DNA from: an uncultured bacterium
Lineage (GTDB): Bacteria; Patescibacteriota; Minisyncoccia; Phycocordibacterales; UBA6065
NCBI GenBank assembly: GCA_963841935.1
Contig: CAWJEP010000001.1
Coordinates: 74,487 to 138,486, forward strand
Reading direction: 5' to 3'
Length of the DNA stretch: 64,000 nucleotides
Shown here: positions 1-61,588 of the stretch, piece after piece
Position numbering within the stretch: the stretch's first letter is position 1
How the letters are laid out: each line of letters starts with the position of its first letter
Made by a program: the position numbers and the translations under genes
The notes under the pieces: model-generated
Database searches by the model: none
Told to the model about the DNA's origin: nothing
What the model saw: only the letters and a program-made list of their open reading frames with translations

Positions 1-1035
1 GGACTAAAAACTCCTTCATTTGCAAAAGCGCCAAAAGGCGGGTTTGCTGGTGCGCAGAAAGCCAGAACGAAAGCAGAAAGGGAGAGGGCGGCGGAATTGT
101 ATGCAACGGATGCGGAAGAACTTACCGTGAAACAAGCTCAGGATCGTAAACGTGCTAGGGCGGAAATCAATACCGCTAATACCACAGGAGCACAAGCAAA
201 CGTGAGGAATCGTAACAGACTAGAGGCCAATATTACTGCTCTTGACGTAGACATAGCAAATTACTCAACACAAATAAACAACGCAAAAACGGCTGGCAAT
301 ACAGTCATGCAAACCCAGTTTGAGGCAGCAAAGAGAGACGCCGAGAAACGAAAAGAGGAAACACAAAAGGAAATCGAGCAAAAGAAGACCGATTACGAGA
401 GTATGGTGAAATCAGAGATTGACAGTATGGTCGAGCAAGAAGCGAAAACAAACACATCTCTAGCTTCAGCTCTTGAAGCAACACAGCGTCTCGAAAATTT
501 TGCTCGACATACCGAGGACGCTGTCGTCAAAAAGACATTCGCGGCGGCAGCAGGAGCTGTTGTTGGTGGTTTAGCAGCAAAGGGTACGTGGCAAAGGGTT
601 TCTAAAGAAAATAAAATCCTTGCCGACCAATTCCGAAAAGATAAAGAAACTAACTGGGCAAAGAATCAGAAGAGTATCAACGCTCTTGCGGCACAACTTG
701 CTGCAGCAACTGCTGGTTCAACACCTCCTCCTACGACCCCACCGCCTACTGGTGCCCCGTGTTGGGTAGCAGAGGTGCTCTACGGAGTTGATGACCAGAA
801 AACACACGCCGCTAGACTGTGGGCAGCAACAAACGATAATTGGTTTACAAGAACGTATAGGACTTATGGGCGATCCTGGGCAAAATTACTTATTACCAAT
901 GGATGGGCACAAATCATGGTTAAACCTGTGTGGAATATTATGGCAATGAAAGGCCGAGGGCTTGCCATAAAAATTAGAAACGGCCAAGCAGTGTTGGATG
1001 AAAGATTTGGTTACCTGTTGGAGAAAATAAAATAA
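1..1035 (+). CDS. hypothetical protein, 5'-truncated by the window edge; coiled-coil N-part, Pro/Thr linker (TPPPTTPPPTG) and a Trp-rich C-terminal domain
   Basis: Frame 1 is open from nt 1 with no upstream stop before the listed TTG at 97, so the gene probably starts outside the window. The stop TAA at 1033-1035 sits directly before the next gene. It is the first gene of the T4SS-like cluster. Confidence 0.45.
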   Translation, partial: GLKTPSFAKAPKGGFAGAQKARTKAERERAAELYATDAEELTVKQAQDRKRARAEINTANTTGAQANVRNRNRLEANITALDVDIANYSTQINNAKTAGNTVMQTQFEAAKRDAEKRKEETQKEIEQKKTDYESMVKSEIDSMVEQEAKTNTSLASALEATQRLENFARHTEDAVVKKTFAAAAGAVVGGLAAKGTWQRVSKENKILADQFRKDKETNWAKNQKSINALAAQLAAATAGSTPPPTTPPPTGAPCWVAEVLYGVDDQKTHAARLWAATNDNWFTRTYRTYGRSWAKLLITNGWAQIMVKPVWNIMAMKGRGLAIKIRNGQAVLDERFGYLLEKIK

Positions 1036-1036
1036 A

Positions 1037-1594
1037 ATGGATAATAACGCTACAAAAAAAATAAAAGAAAAATTCGACACGTTGCCAGACGATATAAAAA
1101 AAGCAATCAACGAGGCAAATCTTCCAGAGAGAGTAGAAAAAATCTCGAAGAAAAATGACCTACTTATAGACCAAACTAGTGATCTTTATATGGAAATATT
1201 TCTTGCGATGCTTGGGATTGAGCCGTTGGCCGACCTTACAAAAAACATTTCAAAAAATGTCGCTGTTTCCGCAGCAACGGCCTTAGCAATATCTAAAGAC
1301 GTAAACACGGAGATACTTCTACCGATAAGAGAATCCTTGGAGAAAATCCAACTGCCTCAGGAGGAAGATGTTACTGACGGAGAATCATCACAAATTCCCG
1401 AGCGCGACGAGATTCTCCGCGACATAGAAAATCCGCAGCCGGTAGCGGAAAGGGCGCCGATAATTGACCCGGAAAGGGAACTCGAGACAAGAGCCGCGGC
1501 GGAAACTTTCGTCGAAAGCAAAATCTCCGCTACAAAAGCACCTGCGGTGGAGAAAAAATATTCCGCCGACCCGTATCGCGAGCCGCTAAATTAA
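1037..1594 (+). CDS. hypothetical acidic protein (185 aa) in the T4SS-like cluster
   Basis: The ORF abuts the preceding and following genes by 1-2 nt, which is typical operon packing. I recognise no motif. Confidence 0.45.
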   Translation: MDNNATKKIKEKFDTLPDDIKKAINEANLPERVEKISKKNDLLIDQTSDLYMEIFLAMLGIEPLADLTKNISKNVAVSAATALAISKDVNTEILLPIRESLEKIQLPQEEDVTDGESSQIPERDEILRDIENPQPVAERAPIIDPERELETRAAAETFVESKISATKAPAVEKKYSADPYREPLN

Positions 1595-1595
1595 T

Positions 1596-2042
1596 ATGAG
1601 ATTTCAAGTACCGCAATTTATCGAGGTCGAGGACAAAATATTCGGACCGCTCACCTTCAAACAGTTCGCTTACCTCATCGGCGGCGCGGGACTTTGCTTC
1701 GTCATTTATCATTTCATCGACAACCTGTACATAAGCGTCATCTTTATGCTTCCGGTCGCCATACTCGCCGCCATGCTGGCTTTTTACAAATATAACAGTA
1801 AGCCATTCGTCGAGCTTGTGGAGTCCGCGTTCAAATATTTCTTTGGCAGTAAGCTTTACATTTGGAAAAAAGAAGAAAAGGCGCCGGTAGCGAGAAAACA
1901 GTCAGCGGCACGGACGGAAAGCGCGCCGGATTTGTTTATTCCGAAACTTTCTGACAGTAAACTAAAAGAGCTCACTTGGTCTCTGGATATTAAACAAGCG
2001 GAAAACCCCGTAACAGACACGAGCGGCGGAAGAAATGTCTGA
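1596..2042 (+). CDS. small two-TM membrane protein, VirB3-like position directly upstream of the VirB4-like ATPase
   Basis: There are two hydrophobic helices (FAYLIGGAGLCFVIYHF... and ISVIFMLPVAILAAMLAF). Size and position match VirB3/PrgI-type T4SS components. The gene ends with TGA followed 10 nt later by the next ATG. Confidence 0.4.
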   Translation: MRFQVPQFIEVEDKIFGPLTFKQFAYLIGGAGLCFVIYHFIDNLYISVIFMLPVAILAAMLAFYKYNSKPFVELVESAFKYFFGSKLYIWKKEEKAPVARKQSAARTESAPDLFIPKLSDSKLKELTWSLDIKQAENPVTDTSGGRNV

Positions 2043-2054
2043 TATAATTGCCAT

Positions 2055-4504
2055 ATGGCGACTCCCTCAAAGACAACGCAGGAATTCGTGCCGATAAAAG
2101 AGATCCGGCAGGGGGTCGTCATTCTCAAAGACGGTTCTTTGCGCTCTATTGTCATGTGTTCGTCGCTAAACTTCGCCTTGAAATCCGCCGACGAGCAGCA
2201 ATCCATAATTTTTCAATTCCAAAATTTCCTAAACTCGCTCGACTTTTCCATTCAGATTTTTATTCAATCGAGAAAACTCGATATTCGTCCGTACATCGCT
2301 CTTCTCGAGGGAAGAGAGAAGGAGCAATCCACGGACCTGATGAAAATCCAGACTCGCGAATACATAGAATTCATAAAAACATTCACGGAGTCCACGAACA
2401 TCATGACCAAGACGTTTTTTATCGTCGTGCCGTACGCCGCGCCGGTGGTCGAAGGCGGTTCCAGCGTGAAAAATATCTTTGGCAAGAAAAAAAATCAGAG
2501 CCAGACGGACGCCGAGACGGAGTTGGCTTCTTTCGAGGAACACAGGAGTCAACTCGAACAGAGAACCGGGGTCATAGACCAAGGGCTCACGCGTTGCGGC
2601 CTCCGCACCATCAATCTCGGCACGGAAGAAGTCGTCGAACTCTTCTATAAAATATTCAATCCGGGGGACACGGAAAAACCGATACCGATTTCATAAAATT
2701 ATGGCATTATTTTCAAAATTATTCGGAAAAAAAGACGACAGCGTGAAGATGGCGCCAATACTGCCCCAGGAAATATACGAGGCCGGCGTTCTCGAACTAA
2801 AAGATATCATCGCTCCGTCGGCGCTAAAGATTTCTCCGCGCGAACTTTCCCTAGGCGACAAAATCGTCAGAACTTTTTTCGTCATTTCGTATCCTCGTTT
2901 CCTTTCCGAGAGCTGGTTCGCGCCAATCATCAATCTCGACAAAGTTTTTAATGTTTCGATTTTCGTCCACCCCGTGGACACGGCGAAAGTTTTGAAACAA
3001 TTTCAGAAAAAAGTCGCCGAGGTCCAAAGTCAAATCTCCATCCGCGAACAAAAAGGTTTGGTGCGCGACCCAATGCTCGACACGGCTTATCAGGACCTCG
3101 AAAGCTTGCGCGACAGTCTGCAACAAGCACAGGAAAAATTGTTTGACGTCGGACTTTATATCACGATTTACGCTGACAGCGACCAAGAATTGGATAAAAC
3201 CGAATCGGAAATAAAATCAATCCTCGAGTCCAAGCTGGTCTACGTGAAACCGGCACTTTTCCAGCAGGAAGAAGGTTATATTTCCAACTTGCCAACGATG
3301 ACCGACGAACTGGCCGTGCATTCCAAACTTAACTCCTCGCCCCTTTCGTCGCTTTTTCCCTTCGTTTCATTCGATTTGACTTCGGACAAAGGAATCCTTT
3401 ACGGCATAAACAGACACAATTCTTCGCTCGTGCTTTTCGACAGATTTTCTCTTGGAAAACTACAACTCAATAACTTTCGCCAAATCCGGCGCGGGAAAAT
3501 CATACGCCACCAAACTTGAAATACTGCGCACGCTTATGTTTGATACCGATGTCATAGTCATCGACCCGGAAAGGGAATATGAATTTCTCTCCGAAGCGAC
3601 CGGCGGAAAATATTTCAACATTTCCCTAAATTCCGAACACCATATAAATCCTTTCGATTTGCCGATTGCGCGCGAAGACGAAAGTCCGGCCGATGTTTTG
3701 CGCTGAAACATCATAAATCTCGTCGGGCTTTTCCGCATTATGATGGGAGGACTTACTCCGGAGGAAGACGCGATTGTCGACCGAGCCATCACCGAGACTT
3801 ACGCTCTCAAAGACATCACGCCGGATTCGGATTTCAAAAATATCGAACCTCCGCTTCTCTCGGATTTCGAATTTGTTCTCGCCGGAATGGAGGGCGGAGA
3901 ATCATTAGTCCAGAGACTTTCAAAATATACCAAGGGCACATGGTCAGGATTTATAAATCGTCCGACAAACGTGGATATCGAGAGCAAGTTTATCGTCTTT
4001 TCCATCCGTGATATGGAAGACGAACTCAAGCCAGTCGCTATGTATATCGTCACGCATCATATTTGGAACGCCGTGAGAAAAAACTTGAAGAAAAGACTAA
4101 TGGTCGTCGATGAGGCATGGTGGATGATGAAATCCGAAGACACGGCGTCGTTTTTACTTTCTATAGCGAAACGCGGACGCAAATACTACCTTGGTCTAGC
4201 CACTATCACCCAAGATGTTGATGACTTCCTCAAGTCTCCATACGGCGTGCCGATTATCACCAACTCATCTATCCAGATACTTCTAAAGCAATCACCAACG
4301 TCCATAGACAAAATCCAGCAGACTTTCAACCTTACCGACGAGGAAAAGTATTTGCTTTTGGAATCTGACGTCGGCGAGGGAATATTTTTCGTGGGACTCA
4401 AGCATGTGGCCATTAAAATCATCGCCTCTTACACCGAAGACCAAATATTGACATCCGACCCGTCTCAAATATTGGCCATAAAAGAAGCCAAGAAAAATGC
4501 GTGA
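2055..4504 (+). pseudogene. virB4: VirB4/TrbE/TraC-like conjugative type IV secretion ATPase, broken into four ORF fragments (2055..2696, 2701..3519, 3452..3706, 3740..4504)
   Basis: Fragment 1 resembles Gram-positive VirB4 N-termini (VPIKEIRQGVVILKDGSLRSIVMCSSLNFALKSADEQ). Fragment 3 carries Walker A (FAKSGAGKSYAT). Fragment 4 carries Walker B (LMVVDEAWWMM) and the C-terminal region. The fragments sum to about 816 codons, matching VirB4 size. The breaks are TAA at 2694-2696 with a frame change, a +1 frame overlap at 3452-3519, and an in-frame TGA at 3704-3706. Confidence 0.6.
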
Positions 4505-4516
4505 TATAATTTTCAC

Positions 4517-5503
4517 ATGAAAACGCTCCGGTTTTTTCTCCTCTTCGTCTTTCTAGTGCCGATCTTTTCCTTCGCCCAAAGTATTCCGGGCATAGCCAAT
4601 CCAGTTTCTATCATTATGGAGCCGACTAATCCCGGACCAGGAGACACGGTGACTTTGTCAGCGCAAAGTTCTTCTTTCGATGTAAATTCCGCAACGCTTA
4701 CCTGGACGGCAAACGGTTCGGTGGTGGCAAAAGGCACCGGTCAAAAGACAATAACACTCTCCGCCGGAGGTTTGGGGAAGAAGACCGTCATCGGACTATC
4801 GGCGCAAGTGTCCGGTCTTGGAACTTTTACCGATTCGCTGACCATAAATCCGGCTTTGGTCGACTTGATTTGGGAAGCGCAAACATCCGTTCCACCTTTT
4901 TATCAAGGCAAGGCGCTTCTTGGTTGGGGAGCGACCTATAAAGTCGTTGCCGTACCGGAAGTTTACGAAAATGGCGCGGCTGTGAACCCATCGCATCTCG
5001 TCTACACGTGGAGTAAAAATTATTCCGTGGACGAAAACTCTTCCGGCTACGGAAAAAACGTCTATCAAAGCGACGGGTCGATAAATTATACCCGCGGCGG
5101 TGACGTTATAAGCGTCACCGCCGCGACCGTGGGCAGCGCGGCTACGGCCCAAGGCTCTGTCACTGTTTCTCCGGTATCTTCAGCAATGCTTATTTATCTT
5201 GAGAGTCCTATTTACGGAGTACTTTACAACCAATCACTCGCTCAAGCATCGCTATCCGGAGATTCCATCACCCTCCACGCCGAGCCGTTTTTCTTTTCCG
5301 ATATTTCTTCCGCCTTAAGCGCTCTCACGTGGACAATGAACGGCGCGGCTGTGCCGAATTTTACCGGCAATCCGTCGCTCACGCTTGTGAGGCAAGATAA
5401 AACTGCAGGTACAAGCGCTATCGTGGCTAATCTGAACAATCCTTACGCTCTACTTCAAGGCGCGCAAGAAAGCGTTACAATAAACACCAATGTTGAACAA
5501 TAA
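4517..5503 (+). CDS. secreted beta-rich protein with internal repeats (signal peptide MKTLRFFLLFVFLVPIFSFAQS)
   Basis: An N-terminal signal peptide is present. The repeated segments are TLTWTANGSVVAKGTGQKTITLSAGG and ALTWTMNGAAVPNFTGNPSLTLV. It lies inside the T4SS-like cluster, so it is possibly a surface or adhesin component. Confidence 0.55.
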   Translation: MKTLRFFLLFVFLVPIFSFAQSIPGIANPVSIIMEPTNPGPGDTVTLSAQSSSFDVNSATLTWTANGSVVAKGTGQKTITLSAGGLGKKTVIGLSAQVSGLGTFTDSLTINPALVDLIWEAQTSVPPFYQGKALLGWGATYKVVAVPEVYENGAAVNPSHLVYTWSKNYSVDENSSGYGKNVYQSDGSINYTRGGDVISVTAATVGSAATAQGSVTVSPVSSAMLIYLESPIYGVLYNQSLAQASLSGDSITLHAEPFFFSDISSALSALTWTMNGAAVPNFTGNPSLTLVRQDKTAGTSAIVANLNNPYALLQGAQESVTINTNVEQ

Positions 5504-6497
5504 ACATTTATACAAAATATTTTTTTCTGTGATGTTTTTCGCGATTTTGTCTGTGGATTTCTCTCATTTGGCTCACGCACAAAATACCTATAACTACCAA
5601 CCACTAGCAACAATTCCCTTGGGTAACGGGGGCACAAACCTCACCACTTCCGGACAAAACGTCGACCCGGCAACCTATGTTTCTGGTTTGTACACACTGG
5701 CGTTTGGCATCGCAATAATCATAGCTGTCGTTTCCGGTGTCTGGGCTGGAATCGAATGGATGCTTGGCGGAGACAACCCGTCGAAAATATCCAGTGCTAA
5801 AAATCGTCTCCAAAACGTCGGCTGGGGATTTCTCTTGCTTCTTTGTTCGTACACCATCCTCTATATAATCAACCCGCAATTAGTCACTTTTAATTTGGAC
5901 CTCGGTAGCGTAAATGCCGGCGCGCAAATATCCGCTGAAGAAGCTGAACAAAAAGCTACCCAAGCGGCTATCAACGCGCTTGCGACTACCGCAAACAACG
6001 CCGTTATACAATCTCAGTCAGATGCCGCGGCTGCTGCCACTGCGGCACAAGCGTTAGCGAGTTGTCTTGCTGCTAATAATAACAATGCAGCTAATTGTGC
6101 CACACAACAGACAGCGGCTAATCAAACACAAACAACATCCACCCAAAGCGCCGAAAAGACTACGGTAACTCAAGCGAACCTCATGGTCTCCAGCGACATC
6201 ACGCAAATCACAACTGATTTGAATAGCAATAATGGAAACGCCGTGGCAGATCTTCAAAAATTTCAAAGTGACTATAATGCGGCTCTAACAAAACTCCAAC
6301 AAGAACAAGTTGCTGCAAGTAATGCTGGAAACGTCGCCCTTGCGAACCAAATCACAAAAGATGGAATTGCTCTTGTCAGTTCAATAACTCAGAAATATGG
6401 TTGCACCCCATCACAACTTCAGGTAAGTAATCAACAACTTCAGCTGAATAATACGGCTAGTTATGGTGGAAACCAAACGATTGGTTGTAGTCAATAA
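5490..6497 (+). CDS. TrbC/VirB2-like pilin with a long Q/A/T/N-rich C-terminal extension
   Basis: It has a signal peptide followed by two hydrophobic helices separated by a short polar loop (GLYTLAFGIAIIIAVVSGVWAGIEWMLGGDNPSKISSAKNRLQNVGWGFLLLLCSYTILYII). This is the conjugative-pilin topology. After that comes about 200 aa of low-complexity Ala/Gln/Thr/Asn sequence. Confidence 0.45.
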   Translation: MLNNKHLYKIFFSVMFFAILSVDFSHLAHAQNTYNYQPLATIPLGNGGTNLTTSGQNVDPATYVSGLYTLAFGIAIIIAVVSGVWAGIEWMLGGDNPSKISSAKNRLQNVGWGFLLLLCSYTILYIINPQLVTFNLDLGSVNAGAQISAEEAEQKATQAAINALATTANNAVIQSQSDAAAAATAAQALASCLAANNNNAANCATQQTAANQTQTTSTQSAEKTTVTQANLMVSSDITQITTDLNSNNGNAVADLQKFQSDYNAALTKLQQEQVAASNAGNVALANQITKDGIALVSSITQKYGCTPSQLQVSNQQLQLNNTASYGGNQTIGCSQ

Positions 6498-6501
6498 ATT
6501 T

Positions 6502-7725
6502 ATGTCCAAAAAAAATCTAACGTGGACCGCAATAATAGTTCTCATAATTCTCGGCCTCACCGCCTGGTGGTTTTTCTCGCGTGAAAGTTCCGCCGTGCCG
6601 GCAAATCAGCCGACACAGACAAGTCAAAATCTTTTTCCTTACGGAACAAACTCTACTTCGTCGGTAAACAATACACAAACTAATCCCCAAGGGACGGTGG
6701 TTCTCGGTGGTTCGTCCGCGACTCCTCCTCCGGCGCTTATCCACATTACCACCGCGCCGGTATCAGGAATGATCTTCCTGCCGGAAACGGCAAGTTCATC
6801 GGTAACACTTAGATATATAGACAGGGCTACGGGACATATATACGACTATTCATTCGGCACCGGTACGTCCACGGAGACTACGGAGACCACCGTTCCGAAA
6901 GTCTATAACGGAATTTTTTCAAATAACGGCACTCGTGTTTTGTTACAAACATTGGGGACGAGTAATCAAATAGAGACGATAACTGGTAGTATAGCCGAAA
7001 CAAATACCGGTCCGGTGGCACTGGAAAACGTTACGTTTTTGCCGACGAACGCCGTATCCATCGCGGTGAACGGTCCGTCGCTTTTTTACCTCGTATCCGT
7101 CTCGAGTGGCTCGCTCGGATACTTGAGCGCCTTGGACGGAACTAAGCCGTCGCAAATTTTTAACTCCGCGCTAAATGAGTTTATATCAAAATGGCAGGGA
7201 ACAAATCTGACACTTCAAACAAAAGACAGTGCCTCCGTCGGCGGATATTTCTTCGACCTAAACACAAAAACCGGCGCGCTTGTCCCGATCCTAAATAATA
7301 TATCGGGATTAACAGCGCTGGAAAATCCTGCGGGAACTTTTGTTTTTGGTTCGGCTTCGAACGGGGGTGTATTGCAGTCATTCATGTATGACGAGAAATC
7401 CGGTTCGGCACGGACGATACCCCTCTCGACGCTCGCGGACAAATGCGTGTGGAGTGACACCGATCCAAACTCTCTTTACTGCGCCGTGCCGACATCATTG
7501 TCGGGAACTTTGCCGGATGACTGGTATCAAGGTAACGTCTTCTTGCCTGACAACAATATTTGGAAAATAACCGCCGACACCGGGGTGACGAACGTTGTTG
7601 ACTTTCTTTCGGAAAGAAACGCGAACATAGACGCGGAGAACCTTGTTCTAGACGGCAAGGGAACTTGGCTCGCTTTTATGAATAAAGAGGACCTCACACT
7701 ATGGGCTCTGCGGATTTCGGAATAA
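6502..7725 (+). CDS. membrane-anchored extracellular protein (N-terminal TM, Ser/Thr-rich linker, large exported domain)
   Basis: The start is taken at ATG 6502 just after the preceding stop (the listed ORF begins at 6463). The TM segment is TWTAIIVLIILGLTAWWFF. It is the last gene of the T4SS-like cluster and its 3' end overlaps yidC convergently. Confidence 0.55.
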   Translation: MSKKNLTWTAIIVLIILGLTAWWFFSRESSAVPANQPTQTSQNLFPYGTNSTSSVNNTQTNPQGTVVLGGSSATPPPALIHITTAPVSGMIFLPETASSSVTLRYIDRATGHIYDYSFGTGTSTETTETTVPKVYNGIFSNNGTRVLLQTLGTSNQIETITGSIAETNTGPVALENVTFLPTNAVSIAVNGPSLFYLVSVSSGSLGYLSALDGTKPSQIFNSALNEFISKWQGTNLTLQTKDSASVGGYFFDLNTKTGALVPILNNISGLTALENPAGTFVFGSASNGGVLQSFMYDEKSGSARTIPLSTLADKCVWSDTDPNSLYCAVPTSLSGTLPDDWYQGNVFLPDNNIWKITADTGVTNVVDFLSERNANIDAENLVLDGKGTWLAFMNKEDLTLWALRISE

Positions 7726-8458
7726 GAGCGTTGGGATTTTTCTTAATCTGACGCCTGACAAAAAATTCCTGACCTATCATAAACAGGTTACTGACCGTCC
7801 AATATATGGCGACGACTCCGGTCGTGGAGTAAGCGATGAAAAAAATTACCACCGGCATCACGTATTTCATTTGGAGCGTCATATTTCTGGCAAAACTGTC
7901 GCTCATGGATTCTTTGCCGTCTTTTTTCGCCGGAGTGGGAGGAATCACAAGCTTCGCTTGAAAATATTGCGAAACGGCGGCAAGAAAAGCCAAGATGTAG
8001 CTCTTTTGCGTAACATCAAAAAATCCCAAAAAAATCGCGCTGGTGACGTGGGTCGGCATAGGTACGAACGGATAGAGAATGGCGGCGTCTATGTGTGTGA
8101 AACCCGCGAATAAAAATATCCTGTAAAGGGCGATAAGTATCGGCAATTGAATCAAGAGAAGTAAAACGCTGGCGAAAGGGTTGAGTTTGTATTTTTTATA
8201 AAGGGCGAATGTCTCGAGAGACTGTTTTTGTTTGTCGTTTTTATATTTTTCCTTTATCTTTTCCATTTCCGGATTTAGTTCGCGCATCAGGGCCTGAGTG
8301 CGCACGGATTTTTTCGCCAAAGGAAAAAGTACTAATCTGATAATCACCGTGAAAATCATGATTATCACTCCAGCGTCGAAGAACGGCAAAGCGTCAATCA
8401 AGAGGACGAACGCGTTGTAGAGGGGATAGAAAACGAATGTGTGGTATATGAATGTCAT
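7694..8458 (-). CDS. yidC: membrane protein insertase YidC (short Gram-positive type)
   Basis: It shows a multi-TM YidC/Oxa1 pattern (PLAKKSVRTQALMRELNPEMEKIKEKYKND... LLLLIQLPILIALY). It is in the conserved rpmH-rnpA-yidC arrangement, with a 4-nt overlap with rnpA. Confidence 0.85.
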   Translation of the reverse strand: MTFIYHTFVFYPLYNAFVLLIDALPFFDAGVIIMIFTVIIRLVLFPLAKKSVRTQALMRELNPEMEKIKEKYKNDKQKQSLETFALYKKYKLNPFASVLLLLIQLPILIALYRIFLFAGFTHIDAAILYPFVPMPTHVTSAIFLGFFDVTQKSYILAFLAAVSQYFQAKLVIPPTPAKKDGKESMSDSFARNMTLQMKYVMPVVIFFIAYSTTGVVAIYWTVSNLFMIGQEFFVRRQIKKNPNALIPKSAEPIV

Positions 8459-8787
8459 TTTGATATGTTAACACGAAGAAGGAGACTCTCTATGTCTCTT
8501 TTTAAAGTTTCAAAAGGGATTTTTACGATTTCTTTCTTCGGTAGGAAAACAATGTGGATGTTTGGCGGGTATTTTTTTATTTCCGACAAAGCGGAGTAGA
8601 CGCGGCGGCGGATTTTATTCCTATCCGAAGCATTCTTCATAATCTTTTTCGATATACTCACACCGAAAGCAGTCCTGCCTGACGAAATACAAAAAATCAT
8701 AGAAATAACCGACGACGTGCGACGGGCGCCTTTCTCAAAAACCTCTTTGACCTCTCTAAATCTGAGTCGGTCTATTGATGGAAGCAT
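8455..8787 (-). CDS. rnpA: ribonuclease P protein component
   Basis: It is a 110-aa basic protein sitting between rpmH and yidC. The RnpA-like motif is KKIMKNASDRNKIRRRVYSAL. Confidence 0.8.
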   Translation of the reverse strand: MLPSIDRLRFREVKEVFEKGARRTSSVISMIFCISSGRTAFGVSISKKIMKNASDRNKIRRRVYSALSEIKKYPPNIHIVFLPKKEIVKIPFETLKRDIESLLLRVNISK

Positions 8788-8790
8788 TTT

Positions 8791-8925
8791 TTAAGCTGAC
8801 AAACGCTTTCTGCCTTTGTGCATTCGTCTTTTTATCATCGCCCTACCTTTGGCGGTTTTTGTTCTCGTAAAAAATCCGTGCGTTCGAGCTCTTTTTCTTT
8901 TATTCGGTTTGTGGACTATTGCCAT
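8791..8925 (-). CDS. rpmH: 50S ribosomal protein L34
   Basis: It is below the ORF-track size cutoff. The hand translation is MAIVHKPNKRKRARTHGFFTRTKTAKGRAMIKRRMHKGRKRLSA, a classic L34. The stop TAA lies 3 nt upstream of the rnpA start. Confidence 0.85.
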   Translation of the reverse strand: MAIVHKPNKRKRARTHGFFTRTKTAKGRAMIKRRMHKGRKRLSA

Positions 8926-10530: not shown

Positions 10531-11628
10531 ATGAAGATCGAGTGCATAAAAGAAAAACTTTCCTCGGCTTTGACTAAAGCCGAAAAAATAACCAGCAAGA
10601 ACGCGACTTTACCTGTCCTTTCTTGTTTGATTTTGGAGACAAAAAACCAAAACATTATTGTTCGTTCCACAAACCTGGATTCGGCGCTGGAAATAGAGGT
10701 TCCCGGAAAAGTCGCCGTTCCCGGAAAAGTCGCCGTTCCCGGAACAATTTTCTCTTCGTTTATATCCTCGCTCAAAGAAAAATCAGTGACTCTTGATACC
10801 AAAGAAGGTAACCTGCTTGTCACGACGGAACACCACCAAACAACGATAAAAGCTTTAGCCCACGACGATTTTCCGGACATTCCGAGAATAGATAACGGTC
10901 ATTCTTTTTCCGTTCCGGCAAAAACTTTTCTCAAAGCTCTGCGTTCCGTGTCGTACAGCGCCTCCGTTTCTTCCGTCAAGCCGGAATTGGCCAGTGTTTA
11001 TATATACGGTAACGGGGACTTTCTTGTTTTTGTATCAACAGACTCTTTCAGACTTGCCGAAAAACGCCTAAAACTCAAAGAAGTTAAAGACGTCAAGGCC
11101 ATGGTCGTTCCCATAAAAAACGTCGGGGATATTTTGAAAGTTTTCGACGATAGCGATGAGGATATAAAGATTTCTTTCGAAAAAAACCAGATATCTCTTT
11201 CGACAAGGTCCGTGTATTTCGTTTCCCGCCTTGTCGACGCTCCGTTCCCCGACTACAAAGAGATTATTCCGAAAAATCCGACCACCGAGGCCACGCTTCT
11301 CAAACAAGACCTTACTGACGCCCTGAAGACACTCTCTGTCTTCTCAGACAAATTCAATCAGGCAAACATAAAAATCGTTCCATCTAAAAAGTCATTCATT
11401 CTTACGTCGAAAGCCAACGATATTGGTGAATCACAATCATCCGTTGACGCCGCAGTTTCTGGAGAATCCATAGACATGAATTTCAATCACAGATATATTT
11501 CCGAGTGTTTGCAATCCATAGACAGCGACGCGTTGTCTCTTTCTTTCAGCGGAGCGACCAAGCCGCTTGTCATAAGAGGTGTTTCGGATTCAAGCTTCAC
11601 GTATCTCGTGATGCCGATGAATAAATAA
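10531..11628 (+). CDS. dnaN: DNA polymerase III beta sliding clamp
   Basis: The N-terminus is MKIECIKEKLSSALTKAEKITSKNATLPVLSCLILE and the protein has three-domain length. It follows dnaA. It contains an in-frame tandem duplication VPGKVA VPGKVA VPG. Confidence 0.9.
   Translation: MKIECIKEKLSSALTKAEKITSKNATLPVLSCLILETKNQNIIVRSTNLDSALEIEVPGKVAVPGKVAVPGTIFSSFISSLKEKSVTLDTKEGNLLVTTEHHQTTIKALAHDDFPDIPRIDNGHSFSVPAKTFLKALRSVSYSASVSSVKPELASVYIYGNGDFLVFVSTDSFRLAEKRLKLKEVKDVKAMVVPIKNVGDILKVFDDSDEDIKISFEKNQISLSTRSVYFVSRLVDAPFPDYKEIIPKNPTTEATLLKQDLTDALKTLSVFSDKFNQANIKIVPSKKSFILTSKANDIGESQSSVDAAVSGESIDMNFNHRYISECLQSIDSDALSLSFSGATKPLVIRGVSDSSFTYLVMPMNK
10699..10746 (+). repeat. 18-bp in-frame tandem direct repeat (gttcccggaaaagtcgcc x2.6) inside dnaN
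   Basis: It was seen directly: two full units plus a partial third. The repeat encodes VPGKVAVPGKVAVPG in a beta-clamp loop. Confidence 0.8.
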
Positions 11629-17063: not shown

Positions 17064-18785
17064 CTACAGCATTTCATCAAGGTCAATCACTCGGCGCAAT
17101 TCGTCAAGCGAGGTCACTCCTCTCAACACTTTGACCACGCCATCTTCGCGCATATCGAGTATTCCTTGGTCTTTCGTCACCTCTTTTATCTCTCTGTCGC
17201 TCGGATTTTGCACGAGGATTTTTTCAAGCGCCTCGTCCGTAAGTATCGCCTCATAAAGTCCCGTTCGGCCTTTGTATCCCAAGTTATTGCACTTTGGACA
17301 ACCGACGGGTTGATACATAACACTCGCGTCAACGCCTGTTACGAGTGATTTGTCTTTTATTCCTGCGAGGACGGTATCTATGGTTTTTTTCGCGTCGCCC
17401 TCCACGGCGACTTTTTTCTTGCAATACGGACAAAGTTTTCGCACGAGACGCTGGGCCAGAGAAATATTTATGGCCGAAGTCATGACTTTTGGGTTTACGC
17501 CGAGGTCAATTAAACGCGGATACGTGCCGGCGGCGTCATTTGTGTGGAGCGTTGAAAAAACCAAATGTCCTGTGAGGGAAGAATTTATGGCAATGCTGGC
17601 CGTATCGGCGTCTCGGATTTCGCCGACCATTATAACGTCCGGGTCTTGCCGAAGCGCCGACCGGAGTCCGGAAGCGAATGTGTAATCATTGCGTTCCGAT
17701 TCTTCGTCTTCTTTTGTTCGTTGTCTTGCCGTGTGGACTTGTGTTTGAACGATTCCCGGCAAATGGTATTCTATCGGGTCTTCAATGGTAATTATTTTTA
17801 TTTCCGGAGAATATATTTTTCGGAGAAACGCGTATAGGGTAGTTGTTTTTCCTGAACCCGTCGGGCCGGTGGTGAGTATCATGCCGTTTGGTCTGTCTAT
17901 TTCTTTGAGCAAGATTTTCAGAAGTTTTTCCGGAATGCCGAGGTCTTCCAGGGGTACTTGTATTGATTTGGGGTTTAGAATACGCATGACAATTGACTCA
18001 TCGTAAGCCCCGGGAAGAATGGAAGTCCTGATTTCTATTTCATCGGCGCCGATTTTCACGCTGAAACGCCCATCCTGCGCTTCGTTTTTCACATTGAGCT
18101 TCAAACCGGACAGAAGTTTTATGCGCGAGAGTAAAAGTCCAAAAGTTTCTTTGTCGAACATCAAAATATCGGTGAGCACGCCATCGAGACGATACCTCAG
18201 ACGCACGTTTTCTTCCTCCGGTTCTATGTGCACGTCTGAAGCATCCGTTGCGAGTCCGCCGGATAGCACTATTTCCAATATTTTGGAAATCCTGAAACTT
18301 CTTTTTAATTTAATAACATCGCCTATGAGTTTTTTCACGTCCCCAATGGACTTTATCTGTGACATAAATTGCTCTATGTCGTAAGTGGAAATATCCAAAA
18401 CACCAGCCGAGGTTTCTTTGGAGAAAGAAAGGTCGGCGTAACGCGCCCAAACTTTTTCCAAGCTTTTTGGGGACGCTATGGCGACCGTAACCTCATATCC
18501 TTTGTCCGAAAGCCCGTTTATTACCTCTTTGGCTTTCAAATTTGTCGGCGAAAGGACGGCAATTTTTACTTTTTTGCCTATTTGGTTTGCCGGCGCCATT
18601 TGGGCTTCGCGCGCGACTTTCTCCGGTATGAGACGCAGAGAGTCCATGTCTACAGGTACGGCCGAAAGGTCAATATATTCAAGTTCGAAACGGCCGGCGA
18701 CGTCGCGCGCCAAATCCTCCTCCTCTTTTTCTTTCAGCTCGCCAAGTTTTCTGTTCTGTTTATCTTCGTCGAATTGGACTGCCAT
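17064..18785 (-). CDS. pilB: type II/IV secretion system ATPase, PilB/GspE family
   Basis: It has an N-terminal GSPII_E_N-like region. Walker A is LTTGPTGSGKTTTLYAFL, with Asp box and Walker B (MVGEIRD). The tetracysteine motif is CPYCKKK...CPKCNNLGYKGRTGLYE. Confidence 0.85.
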   Translation of the reverse strand: MAVQFDEDKQNRKLGELKEKEEEDLARDVAGRFELEYIDLSAVPVDMDSLRLIPEKVAREAQMAPANQIGKKVKIAVLSPTNLKAKEVINGLSDKGYEVTVAIASPKSLEKVWARYADLSFSKETSAGVLDISTYDIEQFMSQIKSIGDVKKLIGDVIKLKRSFRISKILEIVLSGGLATDASDVHIEPEEENVRLRYRLDGVLTDILMFDKETFGLLLSRIKLLSGLKLNVKNEAQDGRFSVKIGADEIEIRTSILPGAYDESIVMRILNPKSIQVPLEDLGIPEKLLKILLKEIDRPNGMILTTGPTGSGKTTTLYAFLRKIYSPEIKIITIEDPIEYHLPGIVQTQVHTARQRTKEDEESERNDYTFASGLRSALRQDPDVIMVGEIRDADTASIAINSSLTGHLVFSTLHTNDAAGTYPRLIDLGVNPKVMTSAINISLAQRLVRKLCPYCKKKVAVEGDAKKTIDTVLAGIKDKSLVTGVDASVMYQPVGCPKCNNLGYKGRTGLYEAILTDEALEKILVQNPSDREIKEVTKDQGILDMREDGVVKVLRGVTSLDELRRVIDLDEML

Positions 18786-22797: not shown

Positions 22798-22870
22798 CCG
22801 CCCATAGCTCAGTCGGTAGAGCAGCTCCCTTTTAAGGAGAGGGTCGTTGGTTCGATTCCAACTGGGCGGA
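22798..22870 (+). tRNA. tRNA-Lys (anticodon UUU)
   Basis: Hand-folded cloverleaf: acceptor CCGCCCA/TGGGCGG, D-arm GCTC-AGTCGGTA-GAGC, anticodon loop CTTTTAA, T-arm GTTGG-TTCGATT-CCAAC, discriminator A. No CCA is encoded. Confidence 0.85.
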
Positions 22871-22910
22871 CAATGTCTTCGACTTTAGAAATCAAAACGG
22901 CGGATCATAT

Positions 22911-40367: not shown

Positions 40368-41402
40368 TTGCCCGGTCGCTCCGCGACACTTGATTTTTTT
40401 TCGTATTATAATATAGGTGTGAAAAATCTTTTGCGAGATATCCTTTCTTTTGTCCCAAGTCTCTTGCTGGCATTCTGTCTGTTATTTTTTTTGACCACGC
40501 CGGCCGCCGCTTCTTCTATCGCGTGTACAAACCTAGCGGCAGACCTTTCTTACGGCGAGACGGATTCTTTTTCCGGCGGACCAATAACGTTGCTTCAAAA
40601 TTTTCTTTCGGCCGAAGGATATATGTCGGCGACGCCGAACGGCCATTTTGGTCCCGCGACGCTCTCGGCCGTAATTCTGTTCCAAACTTCGCGAGGCATT
40701 TCTTCCACCGGATATGTCGGACCGCTTACTCGCGCCGCGATTGGGGCCGAGAGCTGTCCTTCGAGCGTCGTGCAACAAACGAACGCGTCGACGAATGTCG
40801 CGGCGAATTCAAACACGGAGACGCCGTCGTCAAATATTACCGCGCCGCTTGCCGGAGCGAATCTTTCGGTCGGACAAAACTACACTATCACTTGGAATGG
40901 TCAGAGTAATACCGGCTACACTATAGTTCTTGAAGACCAAAACGGCTTGAGCCAAGGTTTCATCACTCCGAACACCCAAACTTCCGGATCTTTCGTCTGG
41001 CAAGTGGGAAACGTTCTTTCCTCCATTACCGACGCGTATTCCGCCGTGTCCTCCGGCACTTACAGAATTCATTTTGAGAGTCTTTCAAGCAACGCGCCGG
41101 ACATGTACAGCGGCATTTTTACCATCGTTACTCCGCCGGTCTCGATAAATTCCATCATGCCGCAAAGTATTTCTTTGTCCGGCAACCACACAATAGTCGT
41201 TTACGGTTCAGGTTTTAATTCACGCGCTGAAATAAATATCGACGGATATTACAACTCGTCGTTCAACGCCCTATACGCTTCGCCGGACGGCACGATTCTC
41301 GTTTTTTCTCTCCCGTCAGGTGTGCCGGCCGGCAATCACACAGTGGACGTATCAAATTCCGTTTCCTTCGCCGTTTCGCCGTCTTTTACCGTAACGCAAT
41401 AA
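40368..41402 (+). CDS. exported protein with peptidoglycan-binding domain (PG_binding_1-like) and Ser/Thr-rich beta-domain
   Basis: After the signal/TM comes LLQNFLSAEGYMSATPNGHFGPATLSAVILFQTSRGISSTGYVGPLTRAAI, the PG-binding repeat. The C-terminal region is IPT/TIG-like. Confidence 0.55.
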   Translation: MPGRSATLDFFSYYNIGVKNLLRDILSFVPSLLLAFCLLFFLTTPAAASSIACTNLAADLSYGETDSFSGGPITLLQNFLSAEGYMSATPNGHFGPATLSAVILFQTSRGISSTGYVGPLTRAAIGAESCPSSVVQQTNASTNVAANSNTETPSSNITAPLAGANLSVGQNYTITWNGQSNTGYTIVLEDQNGLSQGFITPNTQTSGSFVWQVGNVLSSITDAYSAVSSGTYRIHFESLSSNAPDMYSGIFTIVTPPVSINSIMPQSISLSGNHTIVVYGSGFNSRAEINIDGYYNSSFNALYASPDGTILVFSLPSGVPAGNHTVDVSNSVSFAVSPSFTVTQ

Positions 41403-49830: not shown

Positions 49831-49903
49831 GCGCGCATAGCTCAGTTGGTAGAGCACATCACTGATACTGATGGGGTCCTAGGTTCGAATCCTAGTGCGC
49901 GCA
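49831..49903 (+). tRNA. tRNA-Ile (anticodon GAU)
   Basis: Acceptor GCGCGCA/TGCGCGC, D-arm GCTC-AGTTGGTA-GAGC, anticodon stem CATCA/TGATG with loop CTGATAC, T-arm CTAGG-TTCGAAT-CCTAG, discriminator A. Confidence 0.85.
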
Positions 49904-49937
49904 CATTTTGGCCATAAATATAGCCACAGCTTGGCTA

Positions 49938-59223: not shown

Positions 59224-59297
59224 CCGCCCTTAGCTCAGTTGGTTAGAGCATCGAGCTTATACCTCGAGGGTCCTTGGTTCGAGTCCAAGAGGGCGGA
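59224..59297 (+). tRNA. tRNA-Ile (anticodon UAU), AUA-decoding isoacceptor encoded directly with T34
   Basis: Acceptor CCGCCCT/AGGGCGG, D-arm GCTC-AGTTGGTTA-GAGC, perfect anticodon stem TCGAG/CTCGA with loop CTTATAC, variable GGGTC, T-arm CTTGG-TTCGAGT-CCAAG, discriminator A. The body resembles the tRNA-Ile(GAU) at 49831. Confidence 0.65.
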
Positions 59298-61588
59298 CAA
59301 GAGATATCCATGCACCACGGATTTGTCTGTTTTCGTATTTTTAGGTAAGGTCGAAGAGGGTTTTTCGACCCAAAATTGAAGGCCCTGCGCTGTCCGCCGC
59401 CGCGGACAGCGCAGGGCTTTTTTATTCGAAATAAATTTCTTTTTGCCTGCGCCGAAGCAAGCTCTTCGTTAAGCGCCGGAAAATCCGACAAGTTTTCGTC
59501 TTTTTCGACGATTTTCTCCGCTTCGGCGCGGGCGGCTTCGACCATTTTCAGGTTTTGCAGAGCTTCCATGCCGACGTCCGAAATGCCCCATTGTTTTCTG
59601 CCGTAAAGCTCGCCCGCGCCGCGGAGTTTCAAATCCTCCTCGGCGAGTTCAAAGCCATTTTTGGCGTTTACTATGGCACTAAGTCTCGCGAGAGTTTTTT
59701 CTCCTGCCGTTTCAGCGTAGAGGAAACAATAAGCCTGATGCGTGCTTCTGATGACCCGGCCGCGCAGTTGATGAAGTTGGGCGAGACCGAATCTTTCCGC
59801 GCCTTCGATGAGGATGACCGTGGCGTTTTCGACATTGACGCCCACTTCGACTACGGATGTGGCGCAGAGAATATTTATTTTTCCAGCTTTGAAATCGTCC
59901 ATGATTTTTTCTTTTTCGGCGTCTTTCATCTTGCTGTGGAGGATTCCTATTTCATATTCCGGAAAAATATCTTTTTTCAGGCGTTTGGCTTCGGCTTTGA
60001 CCGAACGGGCAATGAGAGCCAGGGCTTTTGTTTGGTCCGGTTCGTCGATGCGCGGACAAATGATATAGGCTTGCCGTCCCGATTTGAGTTCTAGTCGGAT
60101 TTTTTCGTACATTTCCGCGCGGGAATTCTCCGTGACGACCTCCGTGATAATTTTTTTCCTGCCACTTGGCATCTGGTCGAGAAGAGAGAGGTCAAGGTCG
60201 CCGTAAATCGTGAGAGCGAGAGTGCGGGGAATGGGCGTCGCGGTCATTGAGAGCAAGTGCGGGACGATTTTTTCTTTTTGCGTCAATTTTTTCCTTTGCG
60301 CGGTGCCGAAACGATGTTGTTCGTCGATTATGACATATGCGAGATGTTTGAAGCGGACTTTTTTTTGAATCAAAGCGTGTGTGCCGATAAGAACAGGGAT
60401 TTCTCCGTTAGCCACCCATTTCAAAAGTTGCGGACGGGATATGTCGGTCCAGCCGGCGGGATTTACTTTCGACGGAAATTTTCTCGCCCCGCTTCCGGTA
60501 ATGAGGGCGATAGGAATTGGGAAATGGCGAAAGTATGAAATGAAAGATTCGAAATGCTGTTTCGCCAATATTTCCGTCGGCGCCATATAGGCGACTTGAA
60601 GAGTGCCGAAATTCTGATTTTTTGGCCTCGCCGCCGCCACGGCATATGCCGTGGCGGCGGCCACGGCGGTTTTCCCCGAACCGACGTCGCCTTCGAGAAG
60701 GCGCGCCATGGGCGCGCCGCGCTTGAAATCAGTGAGAATCGTCTCGATGCTTTTCTTCTGCGCTTCCGTCGGCTCGAAAGGAAATTTCGAGACGAAGTTT
60801 GCGAGTTCGGCGAACGACTTGTCGATGACGAATGCCGGGTCTTTGGCCCGGACAGCCCTTTCTTTTTGTCTCGCTAGCTGAATAAAAAATATTTCCTCGA
60901 AAGCGAATCTTTTTCTCGCGGACATTGCGTCGTTTTGGTCCTGCGGCGCGTGAATCCAAACCATGGCCGTTTGAAAATGCGGCAGATTATATTTTTTCAA
61001 AATTTCTTCCGGAATCGGATCTTTCACCTCGTCCAAAACTCCGCTTTTGAAAATTTTCTGGACGGCGTGATATATCCAATTACTGGAAATTCCCGCAGTT
61101 TCCGGATAAACGGGATAGAGAGAGTGTGTCATACCGTCTTCACCGAATAGCGACGAGCCGGCGACATCCGGAATTTTCGGCACGCGTTCTATTTTCGGAT
61201 TGGAAAAATAAAGTTCGCCTTTTCGCTCGGCCACTTTGCCTTCGACGCGCACGATTGAACCCTCGGCGATCATCTTTGCGATGTACGGCTGGTTGAACCA
61301 GACGATTTTCATTTTTCCAGTCTCGTCTTCGACGTGAGCTTCGGCCATCGTGATTCTCGTGTGAAATCCTTTGCTTGCCTTGAGTTTAGAAATTTTTCCA
61401 AAAATCGTCGCCGTCGCTCCTTTGGCTAGCGAATCGATTGTCACGAAGTCCGCCGTGTCGCCGTACCTTACGGGGAAGTGATAAAGCAAATCCTCTACCG
61501 TTTTTATTCCAAGTTTCGCCAGAGCGGATTTTTGTCTCGTGTCGGTCCGAAAATGCTCTTCGAGGGAATCCGTGAGATTCATTTTCAT
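59243..61588 (-). CDS. recG: ATP-dependent DNA helicase RecG
   Basis: The wedge/N-terminal region is SALAKLGIKTVEDLLYHFPVRYGD. Helicase motif I is GDVGSGKTAVAAATAYAVAAA, motif II is IIDEQHRFG, and the TRG-like C-terminal region is present. The start is taken at ATG 61586-61588, directly after tRNA-Ser. The ORF stays open to 59243, giving about a 55-aa C-terminal tail that runs through the terminator hairpin and antisense to tRNA-Ile. Confidence 0.8.
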   Translation of the reverse strand: MKMNLTDSLEEHFRTDTRQKSALAKLGIKTVEDLLYHFPVRYGDTADFVTIDSLAKGATATIFGKISKLKASKGFHTRITMAEAHVEDETGKMKIVWFNQPYIAKMIAEGSIVRVEGKVAERKGELYFSNPKIERVPKIPDVAGSSLFGEDGMTHSLYPVYPETAGISSNWIYHAVQKIFKSGVLDEVKDPIPEEILKKYNLPHFQTAMVWIHAPQDQNDAMSARKRFAFEEIFFIQLARQKERAVRAKDPAFVIDKSFAELANFVSKFPFEPTEAQKKSIETILTDFKRGAPMARLLEGDVGSGKTAVAAATAYAVAAARPKNQNFGTLQVAYMAPTEILAKQHFESFISYFRHFPIPIALITGSGARKFPSKVNPAGWTDISRPQLLKWVANGEIPVLIGTHALIQKKVRFKHLAYVIIDEQHRFGTAQRKKLTQKEKIVPHLLSMTATPIPRTLALTIYGDLDLSLLDQMPSGRKKIITEVVTENSRAEMYEKIRLELKSGRQAYIICPRIDEPDQTKALALIARSVKAEAKRLKKDIFPEYEIGILHSKMKDAEKEKIMDDFKAGKINILCATSVVEVGVNVENATVILIEGAERFGLAQLHQLRGRVIRSTHQAYCFLYAETAGEKTLARLSAIVNAKNGFELAEEDLKLRGAGELYGRKQWGISDVGMEALQNLKMVEAARAEAEKIVEKDENLSDFPALNEELASAQAKRNLFRIKKPCAVRGGGQRRAFNFGSKNPLRPYLKIRKQTNPWCMDISCPPSWTRTKDPRGISSML
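59382..59423 (+). terminator. rho-independent terminator (GCCCTGCGCTGTCCGC-cgcc-GCGGACAGCGCAGGGC + TTTTTT) downstream of tRNA-Ile(UAU)
   Basis: It is a 16-bp perfect stem plus a T6 run on the + strand. It lies inside the 3' coding tail of the recG ORF on the opposite strand. Confidence 0.7.
60630..60661. repeat. 32-bp perfect palindrome (gccgccgccacggcatatgccgtggcggcggc) inside recG
   Basis: It was verified base-by-base as its own reverse complement, centred on CATATG. It encodes AVAAATAYAVAAA just after the Walker A motif. Confidence 0.85.

Follow-up and report, generated by a model that had tools for sequence, protein, structure and literature searches.

An origin-proximal type IV secretion locus of Paceibacteria, probably vertically inherited, with a virB4 gene that is interrupted in one metagenomic assembly

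The closest described relatives of the locus analysed here are the type IV secretion systems (T4SSs) of Patescibacteria, whose VirB4 proteins form a monophyletic clade nested in the monoderm MPF-FATA group according to Quinonero-Coronel et al. (2025, Microb Genom; PMC12102498). These authors found TrsD, PrgI/VirB3, VirB6 and VirB2-like pilins encoded near virB4, with TrsD as the most abundant T4SS component in Patescibacteria, PF18895 among the pilin profiles used, a relaxase almost never present, and dnaA, dnaN, rnpA, rpmH and ksgA as neighbours of the systems in Paceibacteria (PMC12102498). The DNA examined here is a stretch of 64,000 nt (the window), and the locus in question occupies positions 1-7725 on its plus strand. 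We consider it well supported, with a probability of roughly 0.85, that these positions are the distal two-thirds of a vertically inherited, origin-proximal T4SS locus of Paceibacteria, of the 'Patescibacteria-clade' type and related to MPF-FATA. The system is of an already known kind, described in 2025 (PMC12102498). Similar to the Paceibacteria systems of that study it has a TrsD-like gene, a PrgI/VirB3 gene, a probable VirB6-like gene and a VirB2-like pilin gene beside virB4, no relaxase or type IV coupling protein (T4CP) nearby, and the same dnaA, dnaN, rnpA, rpmH and ksgA surroundings; unlike them, it has a virB4 that in this assembly is hit by a frameshift and a nonsense codon. Beyond the published description, in which they were left unassigned, we define conserved accessory genes for an Ig-repeat protein (H) and an anchored beta-propeller (J), and further ones for B, a protein with a discoidin domain, for A, which is helical and anchored, and for the acidic protein D.

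The T4SS of the Saccharibacterium Southlakia epibionticum ML1 is reported to be required for epibiotic growth (Wang et al. 2023, as summarised in PMC12857230 and PMC11665869); its role is called 'completely unknown' there, and the proposals made for it are effector delivery or the uptake of nucleotides or DNA. A 2026 preprint describes tubular structures at a parasite-host interface which may be T4SS pili. The ML1 system and the present locus are both chromosomal monoderm T4SSs with VirB3-, VirB4- and (here probably) VirB6-like proteins, a TrsD homologue and VirB2-like pilins. The two belong to different classes, however, and ML1 has six pilin genes whereas the locus described here has a single one, encoding a long-tailed pilin. 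The peptidase and lysozyme encoded downstream of virB4 in ML1 were not seen here. Moreover, the ML1 system is backed by genetics, whereas the Paceibacteria locus is known here from its genes alone.

The MPF-FATA conjugation systems, for example TrsC-TrsD-TrsE of pGO1/pSK41, PrgH-PrgI-PrgJ of pCF10 and CD1110 of CTn2, share with the locus a CD1110-type VirB4 (about 344 bits summed on NF045971), TrsD-like and PrgI-like partners and the lack of outer-membrane parts. In contrast to these systems, neither a relaxase nor a T4CP was found in the locus, nor any VirB1 hydrolase, VirB8-like protein or PrgB-type adhesin; furthermore it is chromosomal and, as argued below, vertically inherited, and its VirB2-type pilin is without counterpart there (PMC12102498). 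The DNA-importing ComB system of Helicobacter pylori and the archaeal Ced system are similar in combining a VirB4-family ATPase, a VirB6-like channel (here a probable one) and small pilin-like proteins with the lack of a relaxase, and for Patescibacteria, too, an uptake of DNA or nucleotides has been proposed. DNA import is, however, not evidenced for the present locus, and ComB differs in having the outer-membrane parts VirB7-10. To Ced there is no detectable homology beyond the ATPase, for which the C-terminal virB4 fragment gave a weak CedB match (E = 3e-7).

Positions 1-7725 are filled by co-directional open reading frames (ORFs) that overlap or are separated by spacers of 1-12 nt, and the array ends convergently on yidC (Table 1). 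An earlier note, made from the letters of the window without database searches, had described seven such genes; their common direction and tight packing stand, but the number of native genes in this stretch is eight, gene F being a gene of its own. The whole cluster comprises ten genes in the order A (290 amino acids), B (574 amino acids), C (VirB6-like), D, E (PrgI/VirB3), F (TrsD-like), G (VirB4), H (Ig-like, secreted), I (VirB2-type pilin) and J (anchored beta-propeller). The note's suggestion that the element may continue upstream of position 1 was correct. Contigs of the same sequencing run built with a different assembler (Logan contigs, run ERR11630400) include one, L090, that carries, in this order, a UvrD-like gene, ksgA, a gene of 217 amino acids that faces the other way, A, B and the first part of C, so that the cluster goes on for three genes and then gives way to housekeeping genes.

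Table 1. Features of the T4SS locus and of the adjoining origin region (positions in the window).
Feature	Position	Strand	Description
gene C, 3' part	1..1035	+	hydrophilic basic C-terminal tail, 344 aa in window, pI 9.7
gene D	1037..1594	+	acidic soluble protein, 185 aa, pI 4.6
gene E	1596..2042	+	small membrane protein of the PrgI family (VirB3-like), 148 aa
gene F	2055..2696	+	TrsD/TraC-like, 213 aa, homologous to N-terminal domain of VirB4
gene G, virB4	2701..4504	+	natively 600 aa; reading frame broken in the present assembly
lesion 1 in virB4	3451..3456 (extra base ~3454)	+	CTTGGA here, CTTGA or TTGGA in relatives
lesion 2 in virB4	3704..3706	+	TCA>TGA, in frame, between Walker A and Walker B
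gene H	4517..5503	+	secreted protein, 328 aa, Ig-like beta-sandwich repeats
gene I	5490..6497	+	VirB2/TrbC-type T4SS pilin, 335 aa
gene J	6463..7725	+	membrane-anchored extracytoplasmic beta-propeller; 420-aa ORF, one N-terminal transmembrane helix
yidC	7694-8458	-	flank
rnpA	8455-8787	-	flank
rpmH	8791-8925	-	flank
dnaA	8979-10385	+	flank
dnaN	10531-11628	+	flank

The core of the machine was recognised by searching the cluster proteins with Pfam and NCBIfam profiles. Gene E matches PrgI (PF12666, E = 2.7e-12) and TcpE (E = 1e-4), has one hydrophobic hairpin region and is 45-83% identical to its counterparts in 73 related loci. Gene F matches TrsD (NF041427, E = 7e-7), positions 100-233 of the VirB4_plasma model (E = 1.3e-11) and positions 2-120 of conju_CD1110; its counterparts on other contigs carry the PF26593 (TraC-like) annotation, and it is a separate ORF of 202-272 amino acids in 80 related loci. 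To judge from these homologues, gene F is a native separate gene and no fragment of VirB4. The virB4 fragments themselves are collinear on conju_CD1110 (positions 185-413, 414-490 and 514-733, with E down to 2.7e-44) and also on VirB4 models. The product of gene I matches T4SS_pilin (PF18895, E = 1.1e-8) at residues 64-126 and the NCBIfam Mbov_0395 pilin-like family (E = 4e-4); it has a signal peptide, two transmembrane helices and an acidic tail of 206 amino acids, rich in A, Q, N and T and with 4 Cys, and its orthologues likewise carry PF18895. The earlier note had recognised, next to yidC and the origin, a cluster resembling a T4SS whose parts include VirB3-, VirB4- and VirB2-like proteins, and had proposed profile searches with hidden Markov models as a check; the matches to PF12666, conju_CD1110 and PF18895, i.e. 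T4SS family matches for both the VirB4-like and the pilin-like ORFs, bear this out, as they do the pilin with a long low-complexity tail.

The reading frame at 1-1035, which had been taken for a coiled-coil protein, turned out to be the C-terminal tail of a polytopic, probably VirB6/TrbL-like protein of ca. 700-800 amino acids that starts upstream of the window. The Logan contig L001, identical to the window over 3,023 nt, prolongs the ORF by 523 nt upstream into transmembrane segments, and a full-length orthologue on another contig (L002) consists of a signal peptide, six transmembrane helices and a hydrophilic tail. The only recurrent Pfam family among members of the gene C family is TrbL/VirB6 (PF04610), matched by 5 of 40 sequences with a best E of 6e-5. 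With this topology and these weak matches, gene C probably encodes an extended VirB6/TrbL-like membrane protein, and its layout agrees with the 'extended VirB6' type.

The remaining genes appear to be accessory. The acidic protein D, the secreted beta-rich protein H and the membrane-anchored protein J had already been noted as such, and these descriptions hold. Gene D occupies the same position in 44 related loci, with 22-50% identity, and gave no significant family match in the Pfam and NCBIfam searches. Gene H begins with a signal peptide-like segment and keeps its position in 72 loci; among 38 members of its family, BiPBP_C was matched in 17, Ig_3 in 9 and a PKD-like domain in 5. The ORF of gene J overlaps at its 3' end with the convergent yidC. 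Its true start is probably the ATG at 6502 (407 amino acids), 4 nt past the pilin stop, and not 6463; Met14 of the ORF is invariant in an alignment of 38 sequences (A2) and nearly so in one of 111 (A5), and the homologues have 397-420 amino acids. An AlphaFold2 model built with 111 homologues (mean predicted local distance difference test score 89, about 97 over residues 90-420) is all beta and places a propeller behind a transmembrane anchor and a disordered linker. The best Foldseek matches of this model are generic WD40 and TolB propellers (E of about 1e-9 to 1e-8), and family members of gene J give weak PD40 and DPPIV_N matches. Upstream of the window, gene B shows a weak F5/8 type C (discoidin) domain, and the structure model of the bitopic protein A is a helical bundle with no match in the PDB. 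Searches with family profiles of C, H and J against PDB sequences returned only noise (TolB with E = 0.11, Ig-like proteins with E of about 0.05). Together the accessory proteins suggest a lineage-specific extracellular or host-binding superstructure. A scan for promoters and terminators stayed at chance level. Inside the coding sequence of gene H, at 5092-5126, there is a perfect GC-rich inverted repeat of 14 bp with 11 G-C pairs and a 7-nt loop.

The conservation of the locus was examined with the repaired VirB4 protein as query against a collection with one genome per species, which gave 585 confirmed matches, and the best-scoring 80 of these were fetched as loci (L007-L086) and compared by tblastn with all proteins of the window. 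The order A to J followed by yidC(-), rnpA(-), rpmH(-), dnaA and dnaN is found in nearly all of the 80 species loci; the origin-side flank, with the Pfam labels 60KD_IMP, Ribonuclease_P, Bac_DnaA and DNA_pol3_beta, is present in the loci long enough to show it, and the arrangement recurs in the closest relatives, where ksgA and the gene of a UvrD-like helicase lie upstream. Repaired VirB4 has more than 8000 homologues; the top 120 listed are 571-615 amino acids long and 83-95% identical, and those with names belong to Paceibacterota, Parcubacteria or Taylorbacteria. From these identities to listed Paceibacterota and Parcubacteria proteins, and from 78-90% identity to the 80 loci, we infer that the protein probably belongs to the Patescibacteria clade of VirB4. 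The repaired protein is 95% identical to intact proteins of 600 amino acids. Across Paceibacteria species VirB4 has 78-95% amino acid identity, as compared to 54-73% for DnaA of the same loci, and the ratio of non-synonymous to synonymous substitution rates (dN/dS) of virB4 is 0.026-0.032 against the nearest relatives (ca. 82-84% nucleotide identity, dS > 1). By these measures virB4 is under strong purifying selection, and since VirB4 is more conserved than DnaA with a dN/dS of about 0.03, the comparison identifies the cluster as a core, vertically inherited machine and no relic of a mobile element. The order of the operon is not absolutely fixed, as the rearranged locus L086 (1-21785) indicates, in which F and G lie together, E-D-C-B-A are inverted on one side and J-H-yidC-dnaA are found on the other.

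The gene between ksgA and A on the source organism's upstream contig (L090, 1801-2454, minus strand) encodes a secreted protein of 217 amino acids with a Cys-rich C-terminal region. Close relatives have a gene of 114-217 amino acids without Pfam match at the same place and on the same strand.

The earlier note had interpreted the cluster as the remnant of a conjugative element, that is, an integrative and conjugative element (ICE) or plasmid that decayed near the origin and whose relaxase, coupling protein and integrase were lost or lie upstream. For this speaks that parts of the cluster are homologous to monoderm conjugation proteins (TrsD, PrgI, the CD1110-type VirB4 and the Mycoplasma ICE pilin-like family) and that virB4 is interrupted. 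It was also right about the absence of the three mobility genes: a search of the cluster, of the 20 largest ORFs in the rest of the window and of 5.6 kb of upstream contig from the source organism, which did not extend to att sites, brought up neither a relaxase nor a coupling protein nor an integrase. However, loci of the Patescibacteria clade normally have no relaxase (PMC12102498), and to be without it and without a coupling protein is natural for this system and no sign of decay. Content, order and chromosomal site are kept in about 80 species of the class, selection on VirB4 has been as strong as described above, the partner genes are intact, the G+C content of the cluster (0.45-0.48) equals that of the rest of the window, and the contigs examined continue upstream through C, B and A into ksgA and the UvrD-like helicase gene without any mobile-element gene. 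We therefore regard decay of a conjugative element as very unlikely. The alternative offered in the note, a chromosomal locus for type IV pili or competence (Com) in place of a T4SS, has a still smaller, practically negligible probability. Patescibacteria are rich in type IV pilus and competence genes (PMC12857230, PMC11665869), and a full-length PilB-like ATPase gene (T2SSE/MshEN, E = 1.8e-113) is located at 17064-18785 on the minus strand, 9 kb from the cluster and adjoining ruvA/ruvB/ruvC. In the cluster itself, however, profile searches gave no match to PilB/PilT, prepilin, PilC/PilM-Q or ComE/ComG families; its ATPase is of the VirB4/TraC type, and its pilin belongs to PF18895 (VirB2-type) and is no type IV prepilin.

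Some observations weigh against our identification of the locus as a conserved T4SS. A VirB8-like part with NTF2 fold was not found, the models of A and J being a helical bundle and a propeller, and profile searches of genes A-J detected no hydrolase family that could represent VirB1. The assignment of gene C has weak support, PF04610 matching neither the full-length orthologue on L002 nor the source organism's own partial gene C on L001. The choice of the best-scoring 80 loci introduces a bias towards intact genes. Finally, the mechanism of the Paceibacteria machine has to be read from homologous parts.

With this reservation, a working scheme for the T4SS can be outlined. VirB4, acting with the TrsD-like protein and fixed to the membrane through PrgI and the VirB6-like channel protein, would power extraction and polymerisation of the VirB2-type pilin, and would likewise drive passage of substrate through the single membrane. 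The Ig-like, propeller and discoidin proteins H, J and B could, together with the long pilin tail, form a wall-spanning or host-binding exterior. The substrate would not be conjugative DNA. The most likely role would be contact-dependent exchange with a host cell, by uptake of host macromolecules or by delivery of effectors.

Whereas the partner genes are intact, virB4 is interrupted by exactly two lesions. Its coding sequence runs in frame 1 at 2701-3519, in frame 2 at 3452-3706 and, after an in-frame TGA, at 3740-4504. At the first lesion CTTGAAAAC of the relatives has become CTTGGAAAAC in the window: where relatives read TTT TCN CTT GAA AAC TAC, the window reads TCT CTT G GAA AAC (compared with L002 and L005), a shift of reading frame directly ahead of Walker A (GAGKS). 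The second lesion affects codon 335, which encodes Ser in 10 of 10 aligned relatives and in a comparison of 85 relatives is TCN in 78, TCA in 59 and AGY in 5. Both lesions are present in the deposited contig of 226,187 bp, from which products of 256 amino acids (2749-3519) and 254 amino acids (3740-4504) are on record, and an uninterrupted polypeptide with N-terminal domain, Walker A and Walker B is absent in this sequence. No second copy of virB4 exists within the window. The earlier statement that the energising ATPase is broken thus holds for the virB4 ORF with its two lesions, but not for the N-terminal piece of 213 amino acids, whose end is the native boundary of gene F. The comparison of synteny with related genomes, which the earlier note had also suggested, showed the cluster to be intact in relatives, with virB4 uninterrupted in 82 of 82 other full-length homologues. 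Genes D-F and H-J, which lie wholly in the window, are uninterrupted, A and B are complete on L090, and all other genes of the window that were tested have full length; further candidates for split genes (the RuvC, SpoU and TsaE/PolA junctions) proved to be complete genes with chance overlaps of ORFs. When repaired, VirB4 has no private change at any of the 217 columns that are constant in 79 other distinct VirB4 sequences. Since neither the gene nor its surroundings show other damage, the lesions are either a consensus artefact or the result of a very recent inactivation.

We lean towards a local consensus error in the assembly. The Logan contigs L001, L006 and L090 are identical to the window wherever they are present, but stop at 3023 and resume at 4301, so that the stretch 3024-4300, which holds both lesions, is covered by none of the recovered contigs of the run. 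Contigs of other metagenomes also end in or beside virB4, with L088 starting inside gene H and L002 ending just after gene H, which suggests that virB4 is an assembly trouble spot where related species co-occur. The frameshift site has the appearance of a superposition of two synonymous variants that occur among relatives, TCT CTT GAA and TCT TTG GAA; a mixed-strain consensus may possibly lie behind the lesions, with the TGA as the weaker part of this explanation, AGY being so rare at codon 335. A similar case is a contig in the metagenome-assembled genome of another Paceibacteria species (L087, 6001-7801; ERZ25039529 contig_20315). Here two homopolymer deletions of one base each break virB4, genes B-F and H-J on its flanks are free of interruptions, and the repaired VirB4 again has 0 changes at the 217 invariant columns. 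With k = 21, virB4 has the largest share of cross-species k-mers in the region (144 of 528 shared positions), whereas with k = 31 the shared positions are 30 in rpmH, 25 in dnaA and 15 in virB4; it is thus plausible that reads were cross-recruited, but this would not single out virB4. Guessed partial products of the missing middle contig, looked up as exact sequences, gave no match, and controls showed that products truncated at contig edges are not indexed. When JGI metagenomes were scanned for exact occurrences of one or the other allele of the frameshift site, there were 0 matches, and the contigs of closer relatives found via gene J, P0139 (80%) and P0140 (75%), stop before virB4.

Several facts argue in the other direction, namely that the lesions are real and that the population recently lost its T4SS ATPase, so that a natural virB4 knock-out is seen in which the rest of the cluster has not yet decayed. 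Both lesions stand in the deposited contig, and their products are on record. The rest of the window is free of frameshifts, with the other ca. 58 ORFs intact, so that the assembly is generally accurate and sequencing error is low. Two lesions in one gene of 1.8 kb out of 64 kb are not a random distribution, and no known recoding would read through either of them, TGA being a normal stop. A k-mer assembler cannot make a junction that is absent from the reads. These points all speak against an assembly error. We nevertheless take true inactivation to be the less probable, tentative explanation. After a long drift, two disabling events without any other neutral change would be unexpected, and the gene combines a dN/dS of about 0.03 with the unaltered invariant columns and intact partners. 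Furthermore, the one Patescibacterium for which this has been tested cannot do without the system (PMC12857230, PMC11665869), the gene is intact in 82 of 82 other loci, and on either side the independent contigs of the run break off before they reach the lesions. The interruptions might also be programmed, a +1 ribosomal frameshift at CUU-GGA and read-through or recoding of UGA together yielding full-length VirB4. In frame 2 the ORF takes up again precisely at the conserved ENYNS motif, and the slippery codon at which prfB undergoes its +1 frameshift is likewise CUU. There is, however, no Shine-Dalgarno-like stimulator and no hungry or stop codon at the shift site. Because TGA is an ordinary stop, which ends 18 of 58 ORFs of the window including virB4 and the prgI-like gene, and because neither feature occurs in any of the 85 relatives, recoding is very unlikely indeed.

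The only suppressor tRNA flagged in the window, called by ARAGORN as 'tRNA-Stop, anticodon tta' at 22798-22871 on the plus strand, is a mis-called tRNA-Lys(UUU) with an 8-nt D-loop and the anticodon loop CUUUUAA (U33, A37), and could not read UGA. The window further contains a tRNA-Ile with anticodon UAU (loop CUUAUAC) at 59224-59298 on the plus strand, in addition to a tRNA-Ile(GAU) at 49831-49904. Some bacteria use an isoleucine tRNA of the UAU kind to decode AUA without TilS. A protein with a PG_binding_1 domain is encoded at 40368-41402, 33 kb off the cluster.

If the lesions were real, a natural Paceibacteria population would just have been deprived of the ATPase that energises a machine regarded as indispensable. 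The virB4 of L087, as a second doubly struck but otherwise pristine gene, could then mean that inactivation of the T4SS recurs in nature, and such natural knock-outs would offer a way of asking what the machine is for. If our preferred explanation of an assembly error is correct, the lesson is one of caution, in that an interrupted virB4 in metagenome-assembled genomes should not be taken as decay without inspection of the reads. The window adds no new kind of system. What it provides is a description of the Paceibacteria version as an operon of ten genes close to the origin, with an ATPase that has evolved more slowly than DnaA, and folds for two conserved but unannotated partners, the anchored beta-propeller J and the Ig-repeat protein H. 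The T4SSs of Patescibacteria are among the few conserved machines of this huge uncultured radiation that probably serve interaction with a host.

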